NCBI GenBank assembly: GCA_041675685.1
Contig: JBAYTM010000001.1
Span: 1-29,238 of the forward strand
DNA from: Thiohalobacteraceae bacterium
Lineage (GTDB): Bacteria; Pseudomonadota; Gammaproteobacteria; Thiohalobacterales; Thiohalobacteraceae
Reading direction: 5' to 3'
Length of the DNA: 29,238 bases
Positions within the stretch are counted from its first letter, which is position 1. The number at the start of each line of letters is the position of its first letter. The notes beneath the pieces are model-generated. The model was not told where the DNA came from. It ran no database searches and saw only the letters and a program-made list of their open reading frames with translations. This document shows positions 9,333 to 9,937 of this stretch, in pieces. Position numbers and translations under genes: made by a program.

Positions 9333-9389
9333 AAACTTGACTAAAACACTCAACAATTGCTAGTATTTCTGACCATACCAGTCAGGTTT
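9333..9389 (+). promoter_or_regulatory. sigma70 promoter overlapped by two IscR type-1-like boxes
   Basis: TTGACT (9337-9342), 18 bp, TAGTAT (9361-9366) with a TGn extension. Box 1 AAACTTGACTAAAACACTCAACAAT (9333-9357) matches ATASYYGACTRWWWYAGTCRRSTAT at 22/25; box 2 ATTTCTGACCATACCAGTCAGGTTT (9365-9389) at 20/25. Confidence 0.7.
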
Positions 9390-9438
9390 CAACCTGAATT
9401 GACTGACCGTCCAGAAACGACTTGATGCGAGGTACGCC

Positions 9439-9891
9439 ATGAAACTTTCGACCAAAGGCCGCTATGCAATCACTGCAATGATGGAGTTGGCGTTGCGCCA
9501 CAAGCAGGGTCCAGTCACCTTGGCTGACATCTCCGTCGAGCAATCCATTTCCGTATCCTACTTGGAACAACTGTTCGCACAGCTGCGCAAACACGGGCTG
9601 GTAACTGGACTGCGTGGGCCGGGTGGAGGCTACTGCCTGCGCCGTCCGGCGAGCGAAATCAGCGTTGCGGACATCCTGCGCGCAGTGGACGAAAGCCTCG
9701 AGGCGGTATCACGGCCGCAGCGGGACGAGGAATCCACCGACGCGGACCACCGCGGCGAAAGCCTGGTGCTCTGGGATCAGCTGAGCCATCAGATCTACGA
9801 CTACCTCGACAGCATCAGCCTCGCGCAGGCCGTCACCCATAAGGGTCCCGGCAAGACCGAGGCGGGTACGCTGCAACGTAGCGCTGCCTGA
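9439..9891 (+). CDS. Rrf2-family regulator, IscR-like but lacking the Fe-S ligands
   Basis: MKLSTKGRYA, SYLEQLF and RGPGGGY as in IscR; the C-terminal ligand region contains no Cys. Confidence 0.9.
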   Translation: MKLSTKGRYAITAMMELALRHKQGPVTLADISVEQSISVSYLEQLFAQLRKHGLVTGLRGPGGGYCLRRPASEISVADILRAVDESLEAVSRPQRDEESTDADHRGESLVLWDQLSHQIYDYLDSISLAQAVTHKGPGKTEAGTLQRSAA

Positions 9892-9908
9892 ACCTATCGA
9901 CCAAGTCC

Positions 9909-9937
9909 ATGCCGGGTGAATCACCCGGCATTTTTTT
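9909..9937 (+). terminator. Rho-independent terminator
   Basis: ATGCCGGGTG-AAT-CACCCGGCAT followed by a T run, directly after the Rrf2 gene. Confidence 0.85.

Follow-up and report, generated by a model that had tools for sequence, protein, structure and literature searches.

IscR is the model of a regulator in which a labile cofactor switches DNA specificity. On the iscR promoters of Escherichia coli and Pseudomonas aeruginosa, [2Fe-2S]-IscR represses its own gene through adjacent upstream sites that carry the type-1 motif. The dual type-1 sites on the P. aeruginosa iscR promoters are bound by holo-IscR only, and the footprinted sites match the type-1 consensus at 68% and 76% of positions, which corresponds to 17 and 19 of 25 (PMC6599224). 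A single E. coli protein switches between the holo and apo forms, the latter acting on type-2 sites such as those of suf and hya. On type-1 sites, apo-IscR is kept off by E43, which needs CC where the type-1 half-sites have T, and the E43A substitution is required for apo-IscR to bind them (PMC5411485).

Not every member of the Rrf2 family carries a cluster. CymR of Bacillus subtilis and Staphylococcus aureus has a cluster-less Rrf2 fold, depends on CysK as its partner, and regulates cysteine metabolism. The IscR of Rhodobacter sphaeroides is an IscR homolog without the canonical Cys3His set and binds its cluster with a single noncanonical, C-terminal Cys; it is the sole IscR of the organism and heads the isc-suf operon (PMC4618611). 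Our search of the literature on cluster-less or multiple IscR paralogs returned Rhodobacter IscR, RisR, SifR, and HypR, and no published description of the clade or the circuit considered here.

The locus described here is found in a stretch of 29,238 nucleotides from a metagenome-assembled genome (MAG) of a Thiohalobacteraceae bacterium (assembly GCA_041675685.1, contig JBAYTM010000001.1), which is referred to as the window. Genomes of this family typically carry three IscR-like genes, annotated for simplicity as types A, B, and C, and the window encodes type C. An initial annotation, made from the letters alone, had proposed that the promoter of this cluster-less paralog carries two type-1 boxes and that a canonical IscR encoded elsewhere represses it. 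The features on which the analysis relies are as follows.

9333 to 9357, no strand assigned: box 1, putative IscR type-1 operator, 22/25; near-palindrome TTGACT-N5-ACTCAA over the -35 hexamer and the spacer
9337 to 9342, + strand: -35 hexamer TTGACT (promoter scan); CTTGAC is invariant in the promoter alignment
9361 to 9366, + strand: -10 hexamer TAGTAT with an upstream TG (extended -10) and an 18-nt spacer (promoter scan); TAGAAT or TAGTAT is conserved in orthologs
9365 to 9389, no strand assigned: box 2, putative IscR type-1 operator, 20/25; palindrome CTGAC-N7-GTCAG, reaching from the -10 end across the expected transcription start
9429 to 9433, + strand: Shine-Dalgarno sequence GAGGT, 5 nt ahead of the ATG (read from the sequence); GAGGT is conserved in the promoter alignment
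9439 to 9891, + strand: type-C IscR paralog of 150 aa; IscR-like winged helix with S40, E43, Q44, and R59 kept, without C92/C98/C104/H107, with its only Cys in GGGYC, and with a tail modeled as disordered that ends in -SAA
9909 to 9931, + strand: intrinsic terminator with a 10-bp stem and a T-run (terminator scan)

The window promoter shares with the iscR promoters of E. coli and P. aeruginosa the 25-bp type-1 motif, its AT-rich ends, two sites on the core promoter, and the same consensus (PMC6599224). It differs in that the regulated paralog has no cluster ligands and heads no isc genes, in that the sites flank the -10 element (at -35 and +1, 32 bp apart) instead of lying adjacent and upstream, and in that the likely repressor of type C is encoded elsewhere. 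As judged from sequence and a structure model, type C resembles a permanent apo-IscR, with 4HF0 and 4HF1 as its closest structures, E43 kept, and the former ligand loop disordered. Whereas one E. coli protein provides both forms, the apo-like form would here be a separate gene product, and no type-2 sites were found in our scan. The likeness to Rhodobacter IscR is limited to the missing Cys3His set, as type C is one of three paralogs and has its sole Cys in the wing. CymR is a structural neighbor of type C, but the NCBIfam CymR model scores type C at 103 bits, far under its cut-off of 195, and no link to CysK or cysteine metabolism was seen for type C.

Results

Two putative type-1 operators on one core promoter

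The window was rescored against the consensus string of the literature, ATASYYGACTRWWWYAGTCRRSTAT, which has 25 positions. Box 1 (AAACTTGACTAAAACACTCAACAAT, outer ends AAA..AAT) matches at 22/25 and box 2 (ATTTCTGACCATACCAGTCAGGTTT, outer ends ATT..TTT) at 20/25; they are 32 bp apart from start to start, and their centers are separated by about three helical turns. Scores and spacing are identical to those of the initial annotation, which had also placed one box on the -35 element and the other just downstream of the -10. A promoter scan of the region returned one sigma-70 promoter and bears out this placement, with box 1 on the -35 hexamer and the spacer and box 2 taking in the final two bases of the -10 hexamer and crossing the expected start site. 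Both boxes match over 25 bp with the AT-rich outer triplets included, and both overlap the core promoter. Neither fits the type-2 consensus AWARCCCYTSNGTTTGMNGKKKTKWA.

Box 1 and box 2 are strong matches, since the footprinted P. aeruginosa sites reach only 17 and 19 of 25 and since sites of this quality are rare in shuffled sequence and in the genome. One hundred dinucleotide shuffles of the window gave zero sites with three or fewer mismatches to the type-1 consensus. The whole assembly (2.64 Mb, 472 contigs, a 76% complete MAG) contains nine sites that reach 20/25 and only two that reach 22/25, namely, box 1 and a site at contig C459:236-260. A control pattern, the consensus read backwards, had 0 matches in five genomes as compared to one to three true-pattern sites per genome. 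The motif is also present at established IscR targets of the same genome, with 22/25 at iscR (C459) and 20/25 at erpA (C36). An assembly-wide search for other twin-box modules found none that is comparable, and the type-C promoter alone qualifies. Two further pairs were set aside in this search, one on contig C59 that is weaker (20 + 16) and one on contig C151 that lies inside a coding region. Taken together, these sequence comparisons confirm the two boxes as a real, rare, and conserved predicted IscR type-1 double operator within one promoter.

The gene controlled by this promoter is monocistronic, as the intrinsic terminator at 9909-9931 follows it. It is flanked by an HDOD gene on one side and a spermidine-synthase-like gene on the other and is neither the first gene of, nor adjacent to, a set of Fe-S assembly genes. 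Metatranscriptome contigs from one RNA library cover 9408-9597 and 9706-9893 and leave the flanking genes uncovered. Contigs limited to the transcribed part in this way are weak evidence that the type-C gene is expressed, and such contigs cannot define its start site. Downstream of box 2, at 9390-9412, a further half-site-like element, CCTGAATTGACTGACC, is conserved in the genus as CTGAyTTGrCC. This element and the right arm of box 2 can pair as a small hairpin in the 5' leader.

The type-C protein keeps the DNA-reading residues and has no canonical cluster ligands

The window protein belongs to the Rrf2 family (PF02082, 121.8 bits) and aligns with E. coli IscR (4HF0/4HF1) at E = 4e-35, with a collinear winged helix that includes the SxSYLEQLF and RGPGGGY motifs. 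Its closest structures are 4HF0, 4HF1, and 4HF2. The recognition residues S40, E43, and Q44 and the wing residue R59 are invariant in the alignment, and E43 is present in 119/119 type-C homologs. The ligands Cys92, Cys98, Cys104, and His107 are a different matter, as the aligned type-C positions hold neither Cys nor His, and type C scores 163.8 bits with the IscR equivalog model TIGR02010, under the cut-off of 207.55. A single Cys, located in GGGYC (Cys66 in the window protein), is found in 117 of the 119 homologs. In public databases, type C is annotated as a generic Rrf2 regulator or, in JGI, as a regulator of Fe-S assembly.

Close orthologs do not agree in the length or the sequence of the former ligand loop, and the structure model gives this loop low confidence, with block means of 51-73 and values below 50 for residues 95-98. 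Because of this variability and low model confidence, the loop is unlikely to imitate the holo conformation. An invariant E43 together with a variable, low-confidence ligand loop would fit an apo-like protein.

The other constant feature of type C is its C-terminal end. Full-length homologs end in -[STPA]AA (-SAA, -TAA, -PAA, or -AAA) in 117 of 119 cases, whereas types A and B have no such end, and the last 15 residues are modeled as disordered. Positions 9847-9888 of the window encode this tail, and the window protein ends in -QRSAA. The -AA tail resembles C-terminal ClpX recognition signals and may be a ClpX-type degron. A sensor-less regulator can report Fe-S status only via its abundance, and rapid turnover would therefore be required. 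E. coli IscR is among the proteins with the fastest turnover (PMC11246515). The -AA tail, the modeled disorder of the end, and the analogy to E. coli IscR are no more than suggestive of a short-lived type C.

Cluster-bearing paralogs of the family

Type A starts with MKLTT, is ∼49% identical to the window protein, and has the Cys3His set. In a congener, it scores 208.2 bits with TIGR02010 (cut-off 207.55) and heads iscS-iscU-iscA-hscB. By sequence and gene context, type A is the bona fide IscR of the congeners, and every type-A iscR promoter of the family has a single box of 21-25/25 over the -35 element. Type B starts with MRLST, is ∼56% identical to the window protein, has the Cys3His set, and scores 205.9 bits with TIGR02010. 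It appears to be a stand-alone gene; at the one locus examined (genome G013), no clear co-directional gene follows it. In several family genomes, the type-B promoter has a twin-box layout like that of the type-C promoter. All three paralogs have the same recognition helix, SxSYLEQLF, and the same wing, RGPGGGY, and S40, E43, Q44, and R59 are kept in each, so that any of them may recognize the motif.

In the organism of the window, the canonical iscR is present as a fragment on contig C459. There, cysE precedes an ORF that starts with MKLTTKGRYAVTAML and runs for 59 assembled codons to the contig end; the fragment is 92-93% identical to the type A of congeners, and the 22/25 box at C459:236-260 lies 59-83 nt upstream of its ORF. 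The 76% complete assembly contains neither the type-A segment with the ligands nor any of type B, and complete copies of both are expected in this organism from its relatives. The canonical iscR that the initial annotation had postulated elsewhere in the genome is accordingly this fragment, whose counterparts in congeners carry Cys3His and score above the TIGR02010 cut-off. The idea of one such regulator has to be amended, however: a cluster-bearing paralog does exist, but the family has two, A and B.

In a maximum-likelihood tree, all type-C sequences form one clade (support 100/98) whose long stem measures 0.8 changes per site, and type A clusters with canonical IscRs from other Gammaproteobacteria and from Betaproteobacteria. 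The type-C clade is old. The third Rrf2 gene of the assembly, at contig C280:1150-1776, is NsrR-like, has Cys ligands, adjoins a TusE/DsrC-like ORF, and is unrelated to the boxes.

Conservation of the double operator and its form in a sister subclade

A type-C ortholog is found in all 21 other genomes of the family, among them that of Thiohalobacter thiocyanaticus. The orthologs are 65-88% identical to the window protein, and each has a single Cys. The proposal of the initial annotation depended on the boxes recurring in orthologous promoters and on their going together with the loss of Cys, and both hold. Box 1 scores at least 19/25 in 21 of the 22 family promoters, both boxes are present in 18 of the 22 (box 2 at 17/25 or better) with a spacing that is always 31-33 bp, and boxes and Cys loss coincide in every ortholog examined. 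The alignment of the 22 upstream sequences has a sole conserved block, CTTGACt...TCAa..AT.gcTAg.A.TT.C.gACCA....AGTCaGgttT, which corresponds to the -35 element, box 1, the -10 element, and box 2, and has flanks that are unalignable. Changes in both arms hold the palindrome of box 1 among orthologs, for example, TTGACTGTTTTGGTCAA and TTGACCAAATTAGTCAA.

A sister subclade within the same type-C clade consists of relatives with 59-68% identity, from Thiogranum and numerous uncultured members of the Gammaproteobacteria. A canonical iscU lies downstream of type C in almost every one of them, with a gap of 28-61 nt at most loci and 248 nt at one, and the genomes also carry type A, which is followed by iscS, and type B. 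In the window's family, iscU is part of the isc operon and type C is alone. The Cys-less two-gene operons of the sister subclade share with the window gene the protein clade, a type-1 box over the -35 element, and the -AA tail. They differ from it in that the family of the window has uncoupled type C from iscU, made it monocistronic, and acquired a further operator at the start site. Box 1 (19-24/25) is present in 25 of 25 evaluable promoters of the sister subclade, and box 2 is present in one of the 25. By this comparison, box 2 is a family-specific addition.

Discussion

The boxes place the type-C gene in the Fe-S stress regulon and suggest that it is controlled by cluster-bearing IscR paralogs. 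In the reading that we find best supported, and which we regard as moderately probable, the 57-bp segment would be the core promoter of a stand-alone type-C gene with two built-in type-1 operators, most likely occupied by the [2Fe-2S] form of type A (from the isc operon), of the stand-alone type B, or of both. With sufficient Fe-S supply, the type-C gene would be repressed; when clusters are scarce, it would be derepressed along with iscR, erpA, and the other box-bearing genes. Type C would thereby serve as an output regulator that reports Fe-S status by its concentration and not by a cofactor. In this cascade, we infer the binding protein, the sign of regulation, the instability of type C, and its downstream targets, as well as the inability of type C to read the boxes and their reading by holo-IscR. 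Operators on the -35 and on the -10/+1 region are typical of repression, and the same motif fronts the canonical iscR fragment, the paralogs' own promoters, and erpA. At the positions where E43 of E. coli apo-IscR requires CC, the half-sites of box 1 have CTT/GTT and those of box 2 have CT.

Several points stand against the cascade. The E43 rule was derived in E. coli and may not transfer elsewhere, and, given the shared recognition helix and wing, it is quite possible that type C itself binds these boxes and represses its own gene, as is usual for Rrf2 regulators. The second tier also has no target sites that stand out genome-wide. Of the two-tier cascade put forward in the initial annotation, the first tier gained from the canonical iscR, the conservation of the boxes, and their co-conservation with Cys loss, but the genome-wide scan gave no type-2-like targets for the second.

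The most serious competitor, which we consider clearly less probable, is that cofactor-free type C binds both boxes itself in a negative feedback, possibly in competition with holo-A/B or in addition to it, and that the boxes derive from the promoter of an ancestral, autoregulated iscR and were retained for this feedback. Autoregulation is common among Rrf2 regulators, and every base-contacting residue of IscR is retained in type C. In the sister subclade, moreover, the C-iscU operon begins with type C and has a 22-24/25 box at its -35 element, the classical position for an autoregulator, and the boxes of type-C promoters are more symmetric than those of type-A promoters. Set against this is the strict conservation of E43, although E43A offers a simple route to cluster-independent type-1 binding, and a ligand loop that is unconstrained and hence unlikely to mimic the holo form. 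An autorepressor without a sensor would also leave the gene blind to Fe-S status despite a motif that it has in common with iscR and erpA. In a further alternative, type C would acquire an Fe-S cluster or another signal noncanonically, for example, through the wing Cys66, bridging ligands, or a partner (e.g., IscU, cf. CymR-CysK), and would act as a conventional ligand-dependent IscR on its own boxes. The precedent is Rhodobacter IscR, whose cluster means that the absence of the canonical Cys residues is no strict proof of the absence of a cluster (PMC4618611). Cys66 is kept in 117 of 119 homologs, sister-clade type C is cotranscribed with iscU, and the structural neighbors include cluster-less Rrf2 proteins of the CymR type. 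However, Cys66 is part of the wing that binds DNA and is shared by canonical betaproteobacterial IscRs with a full Cys3His set, so that it is not an innovation of type C, and the C-terminal half has no other conserved Cys or His. We therefore consider this kind of sensing improbable.

It could also be argued that the matches merely reflect a strong sigma-70 promoter with a TTGACT hexamer and have no operator function, since TTGAC is common to the -35 consensus and the type-1 half-site, and a cspD-like promoter of the same genome reaches 20/25 with only one good half-site. In the type-C promoter, however, the distal half-site of box 1 and, apart from the two shared -10 bases, all of box 2 fall outside the hexamers; both are conserved, and the changes among orthologs preserve the palindrome. 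In addition, box 2, which overlaps the last two -10 bases, was counted as having no promoter element, and no comparable pair of boxes exists elsewhere in the genome, which together make this explanation very improbable.

The cascade in which cluster-bearing IscR reads the boxes can be extended, tentatively and with less confidence than the cascade itself, to a division of labor across the clade. Types A and B would serve solely as Fe-S-sensing repressors at type-1 boxes, and the permanently apo-type, short-lived type C would be their target and would signal by abundance. It would have been coexpressed with IscU first and, in the window's family, would have become an independent second tier under a reinforced double operator. 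If true, the two textbook activities of IscR would be split between separate proteins throughout a clade of sulfur-oxidizing Gammaproteobacteria. A ligand-less IscR that exists apart from cluster-bearing paralogs, with the same operator kept at the promoters, amounts to a natural experiment on the IscR switch. It could reveal whether discrimination of the E43 type extends beyond enterobacteria, how paralogous regulators that share a motif escape cross-talk or make use of it, and how Fe-S demand may be encoded as the abundance of a regulator. The question is directly testable, as T. thiocyanaticus and Thiogranum longum are cultured carriers of type C.

Other genes preceded by type-1 boxes

The erpA gene, a type-1 target in E. 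coli, is represented in the assembly by an A-type carrier gene of the ErpA/IscA family with a 20/25 box 35-60 nt upstream (C36:4139-4163), and the erpA box scores at least 19/25 in 15 of 20 family genomes. Neither the suf promoter nor the type-B gene was found in the 76% complete assembly of the organism, so that the box regulon recovered from its own genome is incomplete. In Thiohalobacter, the sufB promoter (L140:1205-1262 in G013 and the matching place in G019) is a twin-box module with a box over the -35 element, TAGAAT, and a box after the -10. In the genus of the window (genome G008), suf is preceded by its own suf_reg_Xantho-like Rrf2 gene, and no type-1 box was found at suf. Because suf in G008 has its own Rrf2 gene and no type-1 box, the twin-box suf promoter is specific to Thiohalobacter. 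The G013 genome, which is 100% complete, has no PF01592 (IscU/NifU_N) match despite a type-A iscR and a suf operon, unlike other family genomes, in which iscU is part of the isc operon.

A genome-wide scan with the type-2 consensus AWARCCCYTSNGTTTGMNGKKKTKWA gave a smooth tail without outliers (maximum 20 of 24 specified positions) and no candidates for second-tier targets.

Further boxes lie upstream of other genes. A cspD-like gene divergent from clpS-clpA has a 20/25 box at contig C7:11656-11680 (L137:3657-3681). The box of this type is stronger, at 22-24/25, in Thiohalobacter and a congener (G013:C1:2083370-2083394, G019:C2:78007-78031, and G008:C4:139861-139885); the cspD context was mapped in the organism's own genome and in G013, and for G019 and G008 the assignment is by sequence match alone. 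The cspD-like box is located ∼140-180 nt upstream of the gene, and a cold-shock-domain gene is unexpected in an IscR-type regulon. A protein of 148-150 aa without a Pfam family has a conserved upstream box in both genera (C59:7338-7395 [L135] and G013:C1:3125275-3125299 [L166:1476-1500]), accompanied in the C59 pair by a second, weaker box of 16/25. This protein has only a faint likeness to SOR/ABM-type folds and is a candidate for a new member of the Fe-S regulon. Lastly, a 20/25 box at contig C195:1304-1328 (L136) lies directly upstream of a DUF2249 gene located between ppk and ppx.
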